Shown: positions 2,686-15,129 of the stretch, one piece after another
How the letters are laid out: each line of letters starts with the position of its first letter
Position numbering within the stretch: position 1 is the first letter of the stretch
Source of the DNA: a virus
Taxonomy: Duplodnaviria > Heunggongvirae > Uroviricota > Caudoviricetes
DNA: 15,129 nt
Direction: 5' to 3' (one strand)
Virus record (IMG/VR): IMGVR_UViG_2545824713_000012
Program-made: the position numbers and the translations under genes
Notes under the pieces: model-generated
Database searches by the model: none
Told to the model about the DNA's origin: nothing
What the model saw: only the letters and a program-made list of their open reading frames with translations

Positions 2686-2929
2686 CGCAAAGTCTCCGCA
2701 ATTACACGCAAGAAAAAACCGCCATCAGGCGGCTTGGTGTTCTTTCAGTTCTTCAATTCGAATATTGGTTACGTCTGCATGTGCTATCTGCGCCCACAGC
2801 ATTCAGTGGTCATAGCAGTCGCTGATGTTCTCGGCTTCGATAACTCTGTTGAATGGTTCTCCATTCCATTCACCTGTGACTCGGAAGTGCATTTATCATC
2901 TCCATAAAACAAAACCCGCCGTAGCGAGT

Positions 2930-3134: not shown

Positions 3135-3737
3135 ATGAGCTATTTTCTGCGCAAAAAATGGATGGTAAATTTGTCCGGGTCAGGAAAAATTTTATGGGCG
3201 CTAAACATGAAAAAAGATTCGTATCCTTATTTGATTTGCATGACAGTTTCAGGGCTGATCTTTATTTTCCTTTTCTTCTGGTGGCGGGCAGATATCTACA
3301 GGGTCACGTTTCTTAATCAGAGTATATCCCACTATTACATTCTGTTTAGCATGGGAATAGCTTTTCTGTTATCTCTGTTTTGGGTTAAGAAGGGGATAGT
3401 AAAACAAAGAGGCTGGAAGAGTCTGTCAGCATACCTTAAGGTTTATGCAGGGATGTGCATATTTGCAGGATTTTTTCTGATTATACCCCTTACGACACTA
3501 ACTTATTTTTTGCCTGGAGAGACATCGTCTTATGTTGCACCGTATCGGTATACTTCCGGTAGTTCAAAAAGTTGTTCTGGAGCTGAGGTGGATGACCCCG
3601 ATCTACATGAGAATATTCGCATTTGCTATCCGTATGGCAATTATGAGTACGATAATATTATCTATGTTGAAAAGAAAATTAATATATTAGGTGCGGTAGT
3701 GACATATGCACAGACCGCGCGTGATGATACTGAATGA
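3135..3737 (+). CDS. Hypothetical integral membrane protein (3 predicted TM helices plus ~75-aa Cys-containing C-terminal domain); opposite-strand moron replacing lambda ea8.5/ea22
   Basis: 200-aa ORF in AT-rich DNA; hydrophobic segments YPYLICMTVSGLIFIFLFFWW, YYILFSMGIAFLLSLFWV, YAGMCIFAGFFLIIPLTTLTYFL; basic loop KKGIVKQRGWK between TM2 and TM3. Start uncertain: in-frame ATGs at 3135, 3162 and 3207 (MKKDSY...), none with a strong SD. Confidence 0.55.
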   Translation: MSYFLRKKWMVNLSGSGKILWALNMKKDSYPYLICMTVSGLIFIFLFFWWRADIYRVTFLNQSISHYYILFSMGIAFLLSLFWVKKGIVKQRGWKSLSAYLKVYAGMCIFAGFFLIIPLTTLTYFLPGETSSYVAPYRYTSGSSKSCSGAEVDDPDLHENIRICYPYGNYEYDNIIYVEKKINILGAVVTYAQTARDDTE

Positions 3738-3781
3738 TATAGTATATAGCGGGCAAGTTTTAGTTAATTTATCGAGGTAAT

Positions 3782-3805
3782 ATAATTTACCTCGACTCGT
3801 TTGTT
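3782..3805 (+). terminator. Putative terminator hairpin downstream of the membrane-protein gene (9-bp stem TCGAGGTAA/TTACCTCGA, loop TATAAT)
   Basis: Perfect 9-bp inverted repeat 45 nt after the stop at 3737, followed by CTCGTTTGTTCT. Confidence 0.4.
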
Positions 3806-4169: not shown

Positions 4170-4267
4170 CTTCCATTAATCCCTGAATTGTTGGTTAATA
4201 CGCTTGAGGGTGAATGCGAATAATAAAAAAGGAGCCTGTAGCTCCCTGATGATTTTGCTTTTCATGT

Positions 4268-5583: not shown

Positions 5584-6365
5584 GCTGCCACCTTCTGCTC
5601 AGTGGCTTTCTGTTTCAGGAATCCAAGAGCTTTCACTGCTTCGGCCTGTGTCAGTTCTGACGATGCGCGAATGTCGCGGCGAAATATCTGGGAACAGAGC
5701 GGCAATAAGTCGTCATCCCATGTTTTATCCAGGGCGATCAGCAGAGTGTTAATCTCCTGCATGGTTTCATCGTTAACCGGAGTGATGTCGCGTTCCGGCT
5801 GACGTTCTGCAGTGTATGCAGTATTTTCGACAATGCGCTCGGCTTCATCCTTGTCATAGATACCAGCAAATCCGAAGGCCAGACGGGCACACTGAATCAT
5901 GGCTTTATGCCGTAACATCCGTTTGGGATGCGACTGCCACGGCCCCGTAATTTCTCTGCCTTCGCGAGTTTTGAATGGTTCGCGGCGGCATTCATCCATC
6001 CATTCGGTAACGCAGATCGGATGATTACGGTCCTTGCGGTAAATCCGGCATGTACAGGATTCATTGTCCTGCTCAAAGTCCATGCCATCAAACTGCTGGT
6101 TTTCATTGATGATGCGGGACCAGCCATCAACGCCCACCACCGGAACGATGCCGTTCTGCTTATCAGGGAAGGCGTAAATTTCTTTCGTCCACGGATTAAG
6201 GCCGTACTGGTTGGCGACGATCAACAATGCGATGAACTGCGCATCGCTGGCATCACCTTTAAATGCCGTCTGGCGAAGAGTGGTGATCAGTTCCTGTGGG
6301 TCGACAGAATCCATGCCGACACGTTCAGCCAGCTTCCCTGCCAGCGTTGCGAGTGCTGTACTCAT
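5580..6365 (-). CDS. bet: Lambda Bet (Red beta) single-strand annealing protein
   Basis: 261-aa [71 protein letters not shown]... matches lambda Bet. Confidence 0.97.
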
Positions 6366-6370
6366 CCGTT

Positions 6371-6667
6371 TTATACCTCTGAATCAATATCAACCTGGTG
6401 GCGGGCAATAGTTTCAACCATGTACCGTATGTGTTCTGCCATGCGTTCCTGAAACTCAACATCGTCATCAAACGCACGGGTAATGGCTTTTTTGCTGGCC
6501 CCGTGGCGTTGCAAATGATCGATGCATAGCGATTCAAACAGGTGCTGGGGCAGGCCTTTTTCCATGTCGTCTGCCAGTTCTGCCTCTTTCTCTTCACGGG
6601 CGATCTGCTGGTAGTGACGCGCCCAGCTCTGAGCCTCAAGACGATCCTGAATGTAATAAGCGTTCAT
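6371..6667 (-). CDS. gam: Gam (RecBCD inhibitor), short 98-aa form only
   Basis: [60 protein letters not shown]... matches lambda Gam; strong SD AGGAG 8 nt upstream; in-frame TAA 19 codons upstream with no start codon in between. Confidence 0.93.
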
Positions 6668-6743
6668 GGCTGAACTCCTGAAAATGGCTGTGAAAATATC
6701 GCCCGCGAAATGCCAGGCTGATTAGGAAAACAGGAAAGGGGGG

Positions 6744-7034
6744 TTAGTGATTCAGGCCGTTACCGCGTCCGTCGAGAAAAACTTCCACGAGCAAATCACG
6801 GGTATAAGTGCGCTCGATGCCGCGATGCAGATAAAGCCGTCCGCGTAAATTAGCTGATGCAGTCCAGGTACCATCTTTGTGTTTGACCAGCATTCCTGGC
6901 ATGACCGCACCTCGATTAACGGTCTGCGTTCCGTAATGTTGATGAACCATAAAAACTCCTGCCCGTAAGCTGGGCTGCTGAACATATAAAGACTTCTGCG
7001 CGTATTCAGGCGGTGGATGGCCGCCGGTTGTCAT
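6744..7034 (-). CDS. Hypothetical protein, first ORF of the leftward early operon (occupies the lambda N/cIII/kil position; not N-like)
   Basis: 96-aa ORF MTTGGHPPPEYAQKSLYVQQPSLRAGVFMVHQHYGTQTVNRGAVMPGMLVKHKDGTWTASANLRGRLYLHRGIERTYTRDLLVEVFLDGRGNGLNH; no family recognised; no arginine-rich N-terminal motif; its stop coincides with the point where lambda-like gam-upstream sequence begins. Confidence 0.5.
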   Translation of the reverse strand: MTTGGHPPPEYAQKSLYVQQPSLRAGVFMVHQHYGTQTVNRGAVMPGMLVKHKDGTWTASANLRGRLYLHRGIERTYTRDLLVEVFLDGRGNGLNH

Positions 7035-7227
7035 AACTAAGCCGCCTCGTTGAAGCGACTAAGGTATGAAATGTTGAGTTAATTTCAGCTGGTCACACCG
7101 ACGTTCACGCGTCCGTTTCACCCCTCGCACTCCCCGAAGCCTGCTGAAATTCAAACTGCGGATCTAAGCGGTCATCGCAACGGTGAATCAGGTAGTTGCC
7201 GTATCGTTGTGTTGTTGCGATGAACTT

Positions 7228-7256
7228 ATTTAAAACTATAGTTGTTTTATCGTCAA
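7228..7256 (-). promoter_or_regulatory. PL-like early leftward promoter (-35 TTGACG, 17-nt spacer, -10 TTAAAT) overlapping operator repeats
   Basis: Minus strand GTTGTTGACGATAAAACAACTATAGTTTTAAAT is nearly colinear with the PR sequence GTTGTTGACTAAAAACAACCATAGTTTTAATCT at 8280-8312. Confidence 0.5.
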
Positions 7257-7390
7257 CAACAAAAGTTGTTTTATTGGTTGTTTTAGATATAACTGGTTGT
7301 ATTTAGGATGGATTTATTTTGTGACTTGAATCGCATAGCGATAACTGAAGCGAGGTTATGGTGGTTTTTTTAACGGTGTGTGTGATGAGG

Positions 7391-7423
7391 GGAGGGCAAA
7401 AGAAAACCCGGCACGGTGACCGG
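7391..7423 (-). terminator. Putative intrinsic terminator downstream of the repressor gene
   Basis: Minus strand CCCGG-tcaccgtg-CCGGG followed by TTTTCTTTTG; about 120 nt past the repressor stop. Confidence 0.45.
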
Positions 7424-7545
7424 GATTCTTACGCCGTTAGGTAAAGATATTATTGCGGTGGCTTAATATTACTACCTAGAGCAAAGATAGGAATTAGTTC
7501 TTTACTGAATGAGCACAATGCCCAGTTGATAATTTTTAATTGGTA

Positions 7546-8235
7546 CTACCCATGCTTCCTATATGTCTGCGGCATGCTCCCAATAACCTTACCGAAGATG
7601 AACACCCGGTTCATCTCGTCTTTCTCGATCGGGTCCCACGGTGAGTAGCTTTTGTTATCAGAGATGACCAGCAGCTTATTCTTCATCATTTGCAGGCGCT
7701 TTACATGGGCTGTGTCGTCGTACAGAAACGCATAGATACCATCACCGTCGAAAGATTTAACTGTGATATCAACGAACAGCAGATCACCTGGTTCGATCGT
7801 TCCTGACATGCTGTCACCACGCACGTTAATGATGCGGATATTTTCCGCCTTCCTACCATCGAACATGTGACGAGCATCGTCAAACGAGTACTCAACCGAG
7901 CGTAGAACTTCTACAAACTCACGGTTGATGACTCCCGGCCCAGCACTGACTTCTATATCAAGAACGTCAATCTTGAAGTATTTGGAATGGCTGACAGTTG
8001 ATTGTATTGGTTGCACTGTACTGTCTGACATATTTCCAACGCCAGAAGATAACCATTCTGCGCGCACACCCAAAGCGTTCGCGATCTCCACGATTTTAGT
8101 TGTTTGATTAGCTTTCCCTGTTTCGATTTTCTGAATAGCAGCCTGGCTAACCCCGACCAAATCCCCAAGCGCCTTTTGTGTAAGGCCTCGCGCTAATCTG
8201 GCTTCTTTAAGTCTTTCTGAGAGTGTTGTTTTCAT
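7546..8235 (-). CDS. CI-like prophage repressor (N-terminal HTH_XRE, C-terminal S24 LexA-type autopeptidase)
   Basis: MKTTLSERLKEARLARGLTQKALGDLVGVSQAAIQKIETGK... HTH; Ala-Gly site in VSAGPG; catalytic Ser in RGDSMSG and Lys in HVKRL. I prefer the ATG at 8235 (229 aa) over the ORF-track start at 8301 because the extra 22 codons would overlap the PR -35/operator. Confidence 0.85.
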   Translation of the reverse strand: MKTTLSERLKEARLARGLTQKALGDLVGVSQAAIQKIETGKANQTTKIVEIANALGVRAEWLSSGVGNMSDSTVQPIQSTVSHSKYFKIDVLDIEVSAGPGVINREFVEVLRSVEYSFDDARHMFDGRKAENIRIINVRGDSMSGTIEPGDLLFVDITVKSFDGDGIYAFLYDDTAHVKRLQMMKNKLLVISDNKSYSPWDPIEKDEMNRVFIFGKVIGSMPQTYRKHG

Positions 8236-8277
8236 AGTCCAAATGTACAACCAAGGTTTTATTCCATCAAACGAAAA

Positions 8278-8300
8278 TGGTTGTTGACTAAAAACAACCA
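8278..8300. promoter_or_regulatory. Candidate OR operator: 23-bp palindrome TGGTTGTT-N7-AACAACCA overlapping the PR -35
   Basis: Perfect 8-bp inverted arms; related half-sites ACAACCA/TGGTTGT recur at 8247-8253, 8324-8339 and in the PL region (7275-7281, 7294-7300). Confidence 0.5.
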
Positions 8301-8312
8301 TAGTTTTAATCT
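8284..8312 (+). promoter_or_regulatory. PR-like early rightward promoter (-35 TTGACT, 17-nt spacer, -10 TAATCT)
   Basis: Consensus-like sigma70 elements about 28 nt upstream of the cro-like ATG, which has SD GGAGG at 8330-8334. Confidence 0.6.
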
Positions 8313-8339
8313 TGATTCAAATTAACCACGGAGGTTGTT

Positions 8340-8570
8340 ATGAACCCAGCTATCAAAACAGCGATCAATATCGTTGGTTCACAAAAGAAACTGGGCGCTG
8401 CTTGCGAAGTTTCACAGCAGGCCGTCTATAAGTGGCTTCACAACAAAGCAAAGGTATCCCCTGAACATGTCGGCAGCATTGTTACGGCTACTGGTGGAGT
8501 AGTGAAGGCATACCAGATTCGCCCGGATCTTCCGAAGTTGTTTCCACACACCGAAAAGAACGCAGCTTAA
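8340..8570 (+). CDS. Cro-like HTH regulator (YdaS family)
   Basis: 76-aa ORF MNPAIKTAINIVGSQKKLGAACEVSQQAVYKWLHNKAKVSPEHVGSIVTATGGVVKAYQIRPDLPKLF; HTH plus the C-terminal RPD motif I associate with Rac YdaS; divergent from the repressor across the PR/operator region. Confidence 0.8.
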   Translation: MNPAIKTAINIVGSQKKLGAACEVSQQAVYKWLHNKAKVSPEHVGSIVTATGGVVKAYQIRPDLPKLFPHTEKNAA

Positions 8571-8582
8571 ATTTCCATTTCA

Positions 8583-8595
8583 CGCTCTTTAACAA
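8583..8595 (+). promoter_or_regulatory. boxA-like element CGCTCTTTAACAA (rrn-consensus type) in the cro-ydaT intergenic region
   Basis: 12/13 match to rrn boxA TGCTCTTTAACAA as remembered; no convincing boxB hairpin seen after it. Confidence 0.35.
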
Positions 8596-8639
8596 TAAGC
8601 AATCAACTTAACAGTCAATTCAAACTAAAGGAGTCAATT

Positions 8640-9179
8640 ATGCAACCACTTACATACCAACAGACTAGCGGATTTAGCCCGACTGCGGTGATAAATCGTT
8701 CTCAAACAAAACAGGTGCCAGGCCACGAAAAAATCCGTGATGCCGTCCGCGCCTGGTCGGCTGTAGATAATCAGGATGTCGTTGCCACACTCATTGTGAA
8801 TGAGTATCGGGAGCAGGGCGGCGGCACCATCGATTTCCCTGATGATGTCAGCCGTGCACGCCAGAAGCTGTTCCGCTTCCTCGATAACAAATTCGATTCT
8901 GAAAAATACCGAAATAATGTGCGTGAACTGACCCCGGCAATTCTGGCGGTACTACCGCTGGAATATCGCGGTTACCTGGTTGAGCAGGATAGCTTCATGG
9001 CTAGGTTGGCTGAAATGGAAAAGGAACTCAGTGAGGCAAAACAGGCTGTCATTCTCAACGCACCACGCCACCAGAAACTGAAGGAAATTAGTGAAGGTAT
9101 TGTGTCGATGTTTCGTGTGGACCCAGATCTGGCTGGTCCATTGATGGCGATGGTTACTACCATGCTGGGGGCGATATGA
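8640..9179 (+). CDS. YdaT-family protein (Rac prophage YdaT-like, in the cII position)
   Basis: 179-aa ORF; segments LIVNEYREQGGGTIDFP and LTPAILAVLPLEYRGYL resemble Rac YdaT (EEYLRQGGGELPL, KLIPAILAILPRELRHR) from memory; strong SD AAGGAG upstream. Confidence 0.75.
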   Translation: MQPLTYQQTSGFSPTAVINRSQTKQVPGHEKIRDAVRAWSAVDNQDVVATLIVNEYREQGGGTIDFPDDVSRARQKLFRFLDNKFDSEKYRNNVRELTPAILAVLPLEYRGYLVEQDSFMARLAEMEKELSEAKQAVILNAPRHQKLKEISEGIVSMFRVDPDLAGPLMAMVTTMLGAI

Positions 9180-9265
9180 CAGGTTCAGAAATGGCGAAAG
9201 CCGGTCTGCTGGAACAGAACCGACTTTCAGGTGCAAATCGTAACACACTCATTGCGGGAGGAATT

Positions 9266-10195
9266 ATGGCAAACACTGCTGAGATATTCAATTTTCCAGT
9301 GCCGGATGCGGCACAAAAGGAGCCGCGCGTGGCAGATCTCGATGATGGTTATACGCGCATTGCAAATGAGTTGCTGGAAGCTGTGATGCTGGCCGGATTA
9401 ACACAGCACCAGCTTCTGGTCTTCCTGGCTGTCATGCGCAAAACATATGGCTTTAATAAAAAACTGGATTGGGTGAGCAACGAGCAACTTTCCGAGTTGA
9501 CCGGGATATTGCCGCACAAGTGTTCTGCTGCAAAAAGTGTTCTGGTAAAGCGTGGGATTTTTATTCAGAGTGGGCGGAATATCGGCATTAATAATGTGGT
9601 CAGTGAATGGTCAACATTACCCGAATCAGGTAAGAAAAATAAAGTTTACCTGAAAGAGGTAAATTTACCTGAATCAGGTAAGAAAAGTTTACCCAAATCA
9701 GGTAAAGGCGTTTACCCGAATCAGGTAAACACAAAAGACAAACTAACAAAAGACAATATAAAACCTTTTTCGTCCGAGAATTCTGGCGAATCCTCTGACC
9801 AGCCAGAAAACGACTTTCCTTTGGAGAAACTGGATGCTGCAATTCAGAGCGGCAGCAAGTGGGGGACAGCAGAAGACCTGACCGCCGCAGAGTGGATGTT
9901 TAACATGGTGAAGACCATCGCGCCCTCAGCCAGAAAACCGAATTTTGCAGGGTGGGCTAACGATATCCGCCTGATGCGTGAACGTGACGGACGTAACCAC
10001 CGCGACATGTGCGTGCTGTTCCGCTGGGCATGCCAGGACAACTTCTGGTCCGGTAACGTGCTGAGTCCGGCCAAACTCCGCGACAAGTGGACCCAACTCG
10101 AAATCAACCGTAACAAGCAACAGGCTGGCGTGACAACCGGAAAATCAAAACTCGACCTGACAAACACTGACTGGATTTACGGGGTGGATTTATGA
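9266..10195 (+). CDS. O: Lambda O-type replication initiator
   Basis: MANTAEIFNFPVPDAAQKEPRVADLDDGYTRIANELLEA... aligns with lambda O N-terminus (MTNTAKILNFGRG...VADLDDGYARLSNMLLEA); C-terminal third is nearly identical to lambda O; SD GGGAGG before the ATG at 9266; the ORF-track start at 9176 is an upstream in-frame extension. Confidence 0.93.
   Translation: MANTAEIFNFPVPDAAQKEPRVADLDDGYTRIANELLEAVMLAGLTQHQLLVFLAVMRKTYGFNKKLDWVSNEQLSELTGILPHKCSAAKSVLVKRGIFIQSGRNIGINNVVSEWSTLPESGKKNKVYLKEVNLPESGKKSLPKSGKGVYPNQVNTKDKLTKDNIKPFSSENSGESSDQPENDFPLEKLDAAIQSGSKWGTAEDLTAAEWMFNMVKTIAPSARKPNFAGWANDIRLMRERDGRNHRDMCVLFRWACQDNFWSGNVLSPAKLRDKWTQLEINRNKQQAGVTTGKSKLDLTNTDWIYGVDL
9617..9773. repeat. Replication origin inside O: five 17-19-bp palindromic iterons (TTTACC-N7-GGTAAA) followed by an A/T-rich tract
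   Basis: Iterons at 9617-9633, 9645-9663, 9664-9682, 9688-9706, 9711-9729 (e.g. TTTACCCGAATCAGGTAAA), then ACACAAAAGACAAACTAACAAAAGACAATATAAAACCTTTTT; same organisation as lambda ori but different iteron sequence. Confidence 0.75.
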
Positions 10196-14704: not shown

Positions 14705-15031
14705 ATGACTAAAAATACTCGTTTTTCCCCCGAAGTCCGTCAACGGGCAGTCCGTATGGTTCTGGAAAGTCAGAGCGAATATGACTCACAATGGGCGACA
14801 ATTTGTTCCATTGCTCCAAAGATTGGCTGTACGCCGGAGACTCTGCGTGTCTGGGTTCGCCAGCATGAGCGGGATACCGGGGGCGGTGATGGAGGGCTCA
14901 CCACCGCTGAACGTCAGCGTCTGAAAGAGCTGGAACGTGAAAATCGTGAACTGCGCCGCAGTAACGATATCCTTCGCCAGGCTTCCGCTTATTTTGCGAA
15001 GGCGGAGTTCGACCGCCTCTGGAAAAAATGA
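14705..15031 (+). CDS. IS3-family transposase OrfA (HTH DNA-binding subunit)
   Basis: 108-aa [111 protein letters not shown]. Confidence 0.9.
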
Positions 15032-15129
15032 TGCCACTGCTGGATAAGCTGCGTGAGCAGTACGGGGTCGGACCGCTATGCAGCGAACTGCATATTGCCC
15101 CGTCAACGTATTACCACTGTCAGCAACAG
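15027..15129 (+). CDS. IS3-family transposase OrfB (DDE catalytic subunit), 5' partial within window
   Basis: -1 frame relative to orfA; [34 protein letters not shown]...; overlaps the orfA stop across an A-rich slippery stretch (GGAAAAAATGATG). Confidence 0.8.

Follow-up and report, generated by a model that had tools for sequence, protein, structure and literature searches.

An exchangeable two-hairpin RNA in the early-left leader of N-less lambdoid prophages: a candidate cis-acting antitermination signal

Background

The described systems closest to the locus reported here are the put elements of the lambdoid phages HK022 and HK639 (putL and putR). As a cis element in the nascent early-left (pL) leader of phages without N, put makes RNA polymerase termination-resistant, alone, via the beta' zinc-binding domain (Hwang et al. 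2022, PMC9378689). We analyzed a 15,129-nucleotide (nt) stretch of viral DNA (IMG/VR record IMGVR_UViG_2545824713_000012; hereafter the window) that holds the left half of a lambdoid prophage, whose leftward early operon has no N gene. Its pL leader contains a 95-nt conserved RNA element, which is a candidate cis-acting antitermination signal and the subject of this work. To our knowledge, put is the sole RNA family in phages that makes bacterial RNA polymerase termination-resistant by itself.

The candidate element resembles put in lying in the nascent pL leader of an N-less lambdoid phage and in comprising two adjacent imperfect stem-loops with internal loops, a likeness of architecture and not of homology. 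It fills the HK639 putL slot in the same scaffold and is interchangeable with putL in near-isogenic operons. It differs in having no detectable sequence or structure similarity to put and in being longer (84 paired-domain nt vs about 70).

Lambda N/nutL and the putative nutL of phi80 occupy the same place in the operon, directly after pL. BoxA acts in antitermination with Nus factors, and in phi80-type leaders a boxA module stands in the slot that the element fills in L262 (L numbers denote loci fetched for comparison). Unlike lambda, the window leader is without an N-like gene, boxA or boxB. The N-less Rac prophage has a non-coding RNA, KilS, between its early-left promoter and its kil gene; the alignment of KilS with the window leader is no better than noise, and KilS seems to end at an intrinsic terminator, whereas the window leader has none. 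Rac KilR, reported to inhibit FtsZ or cell division (PMC12482147), and phi80 Kil belong to the same family as the open reading frame (ORF) that follows the window leader, which also sits upstream of gam. The window family differs from both in an in-frame AUG at 7034 that makes the ORF seem 28 codons longer.

Results

The 95-nt element is a conserved structured RNA

The pL-like promoter was found where the initial annotation had placed it. The features of the promoter and the element are as follows.

7228 to 7256, minus strand: pL promoter (-35 TTGACG at 7251-7256, 17-nt spacer, -10 TTAAAT at 7228-7233)
7234 to 7250 and 7258 to 7274: operator repeats overlapping pL (direct repeat family D1)
7221, minus strand: predicted transcription start, an A 7 nt past the -10, placed from promoter geometry
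7079 to 7173, minus strand: 95-nt conserved RNA element, candidate cis-acting antitermination signal (+49 to +143 of the predicted pL transcript)
7126 to 7170, minus strand: element stem-loop I (columns 4-48, RNAalifold)
7087 to 7125, minus strand: element stem-loop II (columns 49-87, RNAalifold), with no spacer to stem-loop I
7081 to 7151, minus strand: inverted repeat of 9 bp with arms AATTTCAGC (7143-7151) and GCTGAAATT (7081-7089), both read on the minus strand

The pL operator (7230-7248) is 95% identical to the pR operator (8291-8309; inverted match I3). Position 7221 is a mosaic joint, at which homology between phages of differing immunity starts. Matches in Escherichia coli begin at query positions 120-122, corresponding to 7221-7219, and a second promoter type of another immunity, TATTAT-CACCAT-(A/G)TCGCAAC, sets +1 on the same base.

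The element is a conserved structured RNA. RNAalifold was given 17 distinct variants, which are of identical length and form two clades. In the resulting two-hairpin model, 99.5% of cells are paired, and covariation is 0.146, a value reached by none of 500 shuffles (mean 0.083) and by no slid control (at most 0.044). Compensatory double changes occur in three pairs (columns 17/36, 18/35 and 62/73), which account for every difference between the clades in paired columns. The sequence GGGGAGUGCGAGGGGUG is unpaired and purine-rich; it is conserved across the clades, being the same in both consensus sequences with few single-sequence variants. A covariance model of the element (R1) scores 119.7 bits at the window copy.

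A 9-bp inverted repeat had been noted in the leader as possible operator or RNA structure. The repeat itself is present (7081-7089/7143-7151), but two adjacent hairpins fit the variants better. With the repeat as a closing helix, 90.9% of cells are paired and covariation is 0.090, against a shuffle mean of 0.074 (0/500) and slid controls of at most 0.057. The one pair with a compensatory double change is common to the two-hairpin model and lies outside the 9-bp helix, and the second clade disrupts the inner hairpin of this model. The 9-bp helix may be an alternative conformer or closing helix of the element.

No second, putR-like copy was detected in the window, the whole genome of phage PhiR34_1 or 911 kb of related loci; one 26-bit match to the element model inside a tail-fibre gene was taken as spurious. 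A single left-operon copy matches the analogues, in that phi80 has an annotated nut site on the left only and one HK639 put copy, putL, is seen in a fetched stretch that covers only the left operon.

The element, put and boxA modules alternate in one slot

In initial searches the element seemed limited to its E. coli family. A sensitive search of the fetched loci then returned an 81% identical copy in IMG/VR contig L210, where it sits in an otherwise HK639 pL leader, between the same flanks as the annotated HK639 putL-like antiterminator RNA. The pL leader scaffold, CCATCGAAACGAAACATCGACAGCTGAGCGAAGTTAGCCAGCGGCG, is common to phi80, HK225, HK639 and more than 150 viral contigs. Pattern scans of IMG/VR for the HK639-type scaffold gave 38 contigs with put and 13 with the element. 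Across all fetched scaffold loci, the module after the scaffold is put in 74, boxA-type (several subtypes) in about 90 and the element in 11, with no fourth module class among them. In phi80 and HK225 the scaffold is followed by a boxA-containing module, annotated as a putative nutL in the phi80 record.

Five promoter (immunity) types occur with either put or the element (promoter-matched pairs L261/L222, L259/L224, L260/L223, L263/L225 and L262/L220), and some pairs differ by 1-3 nt within the promoter. L262, which has the element, carries phi80's own promoter. When it is compared with the put-bearing L227, homology ends at GCGAAGTGGAG and restarts right after the module at 94% identity, and blocks of 83-94% identity recur across the next 8 kb. 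This is the cleanest example of a cassette swap between element and put. The same alternation is seen in a second scaffold, where L152 shares the 5' start of the window leader and continues into a boxA module.

The element-type phages have an intrinsic terminator and the H3 cassette described below 0.6-1 kb downstream. No conserved N-like gene was found in them; the intervening ORFs vary (TerB, HNH, Zn-ribbon), and the first ORF past the element in L262 also occurs in the put-type L227.

The two characterised occupants of the slot, put and boxA, are cis-acting signals in nascent RNA, and the third, the element, is a conserved structured RNA. It is exchanged precisely with put and boxA in operons that are otherwise almost the same, occurs in N-less phages untied to any downstream gene, and would therefore most simply be another, new, cis-acting antitermination signal of an N-less pL operon, a reading to which we give an even chance of being right. 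The initial annotation had proposed a different, possibly RNA-based, strategy, or none. Comparative support for the former comes from the element's place in the put/boxA slot of related pL leaders; the antitermination activity is read from that position, and the answer may yet be "none".

The leader contains no N gene or nut site

A single long ORF (6744-7034, minus strand), lacking an arginine-rich N-terminus, had been reported between the pL-like promoter and gam, together with the absence of an N gene and of a boxA/boxB nutL. The ORF list and our scans bear out each of these points, and the only gene in the interval is kil (phrog_294). No credible boxA was found in the leader (6951-7226) with 8-mers at up to two mismatches (a lone match at 6994 was dismissed), and no boxB-like hairpin with a 5-bp stem and 5-nt loop was found there. 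An rrn-type boxA (GCUCUUUAACAA) is likewise absent from the pL leader RNA, the window's one perfect copy (8584-8595) being in the pR operon. Rfam returned no match in the leader, either in an E-value search of 6300-9300 or in a gathering-threshold search of the whole window. For lambda-type N, no protein with an arginine-rich motif (ARM) is encoded just downstream of pL, and an ARM-like mini-ORF there is not conserved.

That mini-ORF, GTG-KRTRERRCDQLK, lies partly in the element (7121 to a stop at 7059-7061), and it could be imagined as the ARM remnant of a decayed N/nutL region: its peptide resembles MDAQTRRRERRAEKQ of lambda N, and one variant has ATG for GTG. The frame does not last, however. 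It reads GTG TAA in the second clade, one variant has no start and 7-nt indels shift it; tblastn finds the mini-ORF N-terminus solely in the window's own family, and no boxB-like hairpin is present. We consider a decayed N region extremely unlikely, and the ARM-like mini-ORF (MKRTRERRCDQLK) is effectively refuted as an N remnant and is a coincidence: the second clade reads GTG TAA, indels break the frame and no N protein begins in this way.

Alternatively, the element might be a nut-like recruitment site, bound by a dedicated phage protein (an N analogue encoded elsewhere) or by a specific host factor that modifies the polymerase. Such a site would suit both the slot, which in phi80 holds the boxA module annotated as putative nutL, and the conserved single-stranded purine-rich sequence. 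Against it, no conserved ORF accompanies the element in either scaffold, L262 has its first ORF in common with a put-type locus, and the window has no ORF between element and kil. Phage PhiR34_1, isolated on MG1655 and 99% identical to the window in this region, has Q and no annotated N, and RefSeq phage 4A7 (genus Bievrevirus) has the same early-region layout and no annotated N in the early region examined. We regard a nut-like site as quite unlikely.

Homologues of phi80 gene N (L098 2186-2482) were found downstream of 5 of 81 boxA-type and 3 of 63 put-type leaders. We rejected this gene as a marker of the boxA module because these counts do not separate the classes. The phi80 protein has no obvious arginine-rich N-terminus, and its status as partner of the boxA module looks uncertain.

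The module of leader and kil occurs in 2,238 of 5,426 complete E. coli genomes (~40%), and the 5' part of the leader alone in 2,210 complete E. coli genomes.

The downstream ORF is kil, preceded by a separate cassette

Four features make up the remainder of the leader and the gene that it precedes.

7031 to 7069, minus strand: H3, a 16-bp interrupted hairpin (UCAUACC...GUUAUGA) supported by covariation, with a homologous block in phi80, HK225 and HK639
7009 to 7034, minus strand: 26-nt box, nearly invariant (ATGACAACCGGCGGCCATCCACCGCC), which opens a short upstream ORF (MTTGGHPPP...)
6956 to 6996, minus strand: kil translation initiation region, with the conserved GAAGTCTT at 6989-6996, a GCCC/GGGC hairpin at 6961-6975 and the Shine-Dalgarno (SD) sequence AGGAG at 6956-6960
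6744 to 6950, minus strand: kil, 68 amino acids (aa), KilR family, predicted FtsZ/cell-division inhibitor (phrog_294 match)

The 96-aa ORF, listed as unknown in the initial annotation, matches phrog_294, "Kil protein for bacterial septation inhibition", with E = 1.2e-38. The window Kil is 36% identical to Rac KilR (BLASTP E = 9e-13) and 41% identical to phi80 Kil (E = 5e-16), the homology extending over the whole protein, and its product is by homology a predicted Kil cell-division inhibitor. In both alignments the start coincides with Met29 of the 96-aa ORF or lies no more than a few residues from it. The RefSeq form has 68 aa (207 nt, ATG 6950, preceded by AGGAG) and is named "phage encoded cell division inhibitor protein", and homology to kil in the prophages of other genera likewise starts at ATG 6950. 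The 96-aa ORF is thus Kil read from an in-frame ATG 28 codons upstream (AUG 7034). As kil starts at 6950 and not at 7034, the untranslated leader is about 271 nt (7221 to 6951), which replaces the earlier estimate of ~190 nt. A 77-aa overlapping ORF (6752-6985), annotated in PhiR34_1, has no family match.

The "96-aa ORF" arises because a short upstream ORF, begun by the 26-nt box, has lost its stop in the window family and runs in frame into kil. An IMG/VR pattern scan for the cassette returned 120 contigs, 115 of them with a usable H3-type core. Across these 115, the box is conserved including third codon positions, and beyond nt 26 both sequence and frame are free, giving peptides of 16 to more than 70 aa. 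H3 sequesters AUG 7034 and the GAGG preceding it. In 33 distinct variants, which fall into at least five sequence classes, 97.2% of its cells are paired and seven pairs have double changes; covariation is 0.425 vs 0.150 in shuffles (0/500), and slid controls give at most 0.072. In a distant BLAST search, 7071-7009 proved homologous to sequence in phi80, HK225, HK639 and further phages. In 71 of the 115 contigs the cassette is followed by kil within 900 nt, and the upstream genes are very diverse. In phi80, HK225 and HK639 the cassette comes directly after an intrinsic terminator (in phi80 tL1A, after the annotated N) and upstream of kil, and the small SD-proximal hairpin is retained there with other sequences. 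The relative L086 is a recombinant downstream of the 26-nt box and still has kil. Since phi80, with an annotated N, HK639, with put, and HK225 all carry the cassette, it does not replace N.

This cassette is apparently unannotated and widespread in lambdoid early-left operons (window 7009-7069; L098 ~2500-2670; L099 ~2500-2600; L100 ~2500-2640; L101-L220). Its order is intrinsic terminator, 39-nt AUG-hiding hairpin, 26-nt MTTGGHPPP box (a polyproline motif), variable tail, GAAGTCTTG..GTTCCG, small hairpin and SD. A role in leader-peptide or translational control is possible. In four relatives (L029, L036, L046 and L067), 7 nt (CAACTCA) are duplicated in tandem between the element and H3 (window 7066-7078); the spacing of the two is therefore evidently not critical, and reading frames across it are broken.

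The position upstream of kil raises the alternative that the leader yields a regulatory small RNA (sRNA) derived from the 5' untranslated region (UTR), on the model of Rac in K-12, where a 98-nt sRNA, KilS, is annotated in the kilR 5' UTR (Bar et al. 2021, PMC8175672). The leader cannot be aligned with the Rac region, though, and the element is followed by neither a terminator nor a U tract and has no Rfam match; its downstream context varies while its position relative to the promoter is fixed. An sRNA origin seems to us very unlikely. KilS itself (L005 4406-4503, E. coli K-12 Rac) seems to end at a terminator hairpin, GGCGGCAUCAG...CUGAUGUCCGCC then CUUUUU, in the kilR leader; in another N-less prophage, then, a terminator would separate the early-left promoter region from kil. 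Two other sRNAs were rejected as the identity of the leader RNA: the O157 prophage anti-sRNAs (Tree et al. 2014) are located downstream of pR', and svsR (PMC12803456) lies at the 3' end of cI.

The 5' hairpin and the terminators of the pL operon

The transcript is predicted to begin with a hairpin, H1.

7172 to 7223, minus strand: H1, 5'-terminal stem-loop with arms TCATCGCAAC (7214-7223) and GTTGCGATGA (7172-7181) and a 32-nt C-rich loop

The arms are the 10-bp perfect inverted repeat of the initial annotation, which exists at coordinates 1 nt from those given. When the 192-nt leader is shuffled by mononucleotides, 0.5% of the shuffles have a perfect repeat of at least 10 bp and 2.4% have one of at least 9 bp. 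The fold of H1 is more stable than 200 of 200 dinucleotide shuffles (z = -3.1), and its RNA stem begins at the predicted +1 (AUCGCAAC/GUUGCGAU). Variants at arm positions 2 and 3 still pair through G-U, the 5' arm of an O157 variant (AUUGCAUCG) pairs at 8 of 9 positions despite an unrelated loop, and a comparable 5' hairpin in prophages of Silvania, Enterobacter and Kluyvera has gained an A-U pair through matching insertions in its two arms. An operator role had been suggested for the repeat; it is a hairpin at the transcript 5' end, kept across different immunity types, and not an operator, and we infer that H1 is a 5'-terminal stabilising hairpin.

A terminator scan gave the following signals downstream in the operon.

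4229 to 4247, minus strand: first clear intrinsic terminator of the pL operon, AGGGAGCUACAGGCUCCUUUUUUAUUAUU, upstream of the TraR-like gene, xis and int
2943 to 2962, 2912 to 2931 and 2716 to 2735, minus strand: three further intrinsic terminators of the pL operon

All four come before xis/int, with hairpin energies of -9.5 to -16.1 kcal/mol and a U tract on each. Between pL and exo there is no credible intrinsic terminator, as the scan hits at 6701-6718, 6785-6801 and 6229-6247 have a short or weak stem or no U tract.

These findings bear on a plainer explanation, in which H1 and the element form an ordinary structured 5' UTR that only stabilises the mRNA and shields the leader (e.g. from RNase E or Rho loading) and leaves RNA polymerase unmodified, and the family dispenses with antitermination by lacking tL1. 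A leader of this kind would fit the terminator-free interval from pL to exo and the absence from the window of the terminator found ahead of the H3 cassette in phi80, HK225 and HK639. H1 starts at +1 like known stabilising 5' hairpins, and in other genera there are prophages in which a short leader joins pL to kil and both N and the element are missing. It leaves unexplained why the element precisely replaces put or boxA in near-isogenic N-less operons with a terminator 0.6-1 kb downstream, and why the unpaired GGGGAGUGCGAGGGGUG is conserved across clades. We judge it unlikely, and a serious competitor all the same.

Genomic setting of the leader

The ORF list, RefSeq annotation and family matches identify the window as the left half of a lambdoid prophage, the insertion of which adjoins ybhC. 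Genes on the minus strand are int, xis, the TraR-like gene, exo, bet and gam. Past gam and the leader interval lie a cI-type repressor (S24 peptidase and helix-turn-helix), a YdaS-type cro, a YdaT-type "cII", O, P, ren, emrE and ybcK. One further terminator of the scan belongs to the repressor transcript.

7407 to 7424, minus strand: intrinsic terminator closing the cI (maintenance) transcript just upstream of pL, CCCGGUCACCGUGCCGGG then UUUUCUUUUG

The gap between cI and pL (7425-7545; L002 3763-5191; L006 2049-3650; L007 2380-3796) is a cargo slot, where lambda has rexAB. It is empty in the window; elsewhere its occupants are GevA/GevT (PhiR47_2), a SIR2-family gene (an O157:H7 prophage) and, in YPE12 and phage 4A7, a hypothetical gene together with an ASCH-domain gene.

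In the pR operon, 13 nt past the cro stop, lies the perfect rrn-type boxA GCTCTTTAACAA (8584-8595, plus strand), with no boxB hairpin after it. It is the sole match with 0-2 mismatches in a 12-mer search of the whole window. It is kept in PhiR34_1 and PhiR47_2 and missing in relatives with a 30-nt cro-cII spacer, and may serve, in the absence of N, to bring host Nus factors to the pR operon.

A 200-aa ORF (3135-3737, plus strand) lies within the pL operon in the opposite orientation, between the TraR-like gene and xis. Its C-terminal part matches phrog_1416 (unknown function), terminator-like sites accompany it (3772-3795, plus strand; 4229-4247, minus strand), and it looks like an insulated moron. 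The window also has an insertion sequence of the IS3 family, with its first ORF beginning at 14705 and its frameshift element, an ALIL pseudoknot (Rfam RF01497, 120 bits), at 14986-15102 (plus strand). In strain 600468, whose leader match is 100% identical, the DLP12-like genes ybcN, ninE and rusA continue where the window has the IS3-family element.

Discussion

If the 95-nt element is a cis-acting antitermination signal, early-left expression would proceed as follows. On loss of the repressor, transcription would start from about A7221, and the first 8-10 nt would pair with 7172-7181 to give H1, leaving no free 5' end and probably protecting the long transcript. The next 95 nt (7173 to 7079) would fold co-transcriptionally into the two adjacent imperfect hairpins that covariation supports. 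The element would then act in cis on its own RNA polymerase, as put RNA does, either alone or with a host or phage factor. Elongation so modified would resist Rho on the ~190-270 nt untranslated leader, and would also read through the intrinsic terminators (4229-4247 and 2716-2962) that stand ahead of the TraR-like gene, xis and int. The final third of the leader (H3, the 26-nt box and the SD-proximal hairpin) is a separate cassette that would keep AUG 7034 closed, with Kil made from AUG 6950.

Several points weigh against an antitermination role. The role rests on position, and unrelated cargo, too, can fill a slot of a mosaic genome. The window family lacks the intrinsic terminator usually found ahead of the H3 cassette, and antitermination is thus not needed for kil, gam, bet and exo; losing that terminator could itself mean that antitermination is unavailable. 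With respect to structure, the H2 region does not fold significantly more stably than its shuffles (z = -1.4), and only two clades are known, such that each compensatory pair represents one evolutionary event. A put covariance model (R2) built from HK022 putL, HK022 putR and HK639 putL recovers these three at 85, 43 and 102 bits, respectively, and gives no match in the window, PhiR34_1, L210 or L262 at E up to 10; local alignments of the element with put yield p > 0.08. Our searches of the literature found no description of the element, and an earlier one may exist.

The same model and alignments led us to reject membership of the element in the put family. The conserved put sequence and structure (CGAACGGC..GUCGG..GGCGGG..AGGAUGA..CAAU) is not present in the element, and the shared strings AACGG...GUCGG, GGCAAU and GGGAG.GCG are not beyond chance.

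Conclusions

A bolder proposal, which we put forward tentatively and which could well prove wrong, is that the element may bind E. coli RNA polymerase and represent, next to put and with no structural relation to it, another class of antiterminator RNA that needs no factor. The phi80/HK639-like and Bievrevirus-like pL leader would then be a plug-in slot in which three modules (boxA-type, put and the element) are swapped by recombination, and in E. coli the element, at about 2,200 of 5,426 complete genomes, would be commoner than either of the other two. Many lambdoid phages without N pass early terminators, and for one such phage a 2025 survey offered only that it "may have put" (PMC12315714). 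The element is a concrete and very common candidate, with natural swaps of put, element and boxA in otherwise identical operons. Should it prove active, the elongation complex would have a second form of control by RNA only, and the element would provide a handle on the expression of kil and the recombination genes in prophages of ~40% of E. coli.

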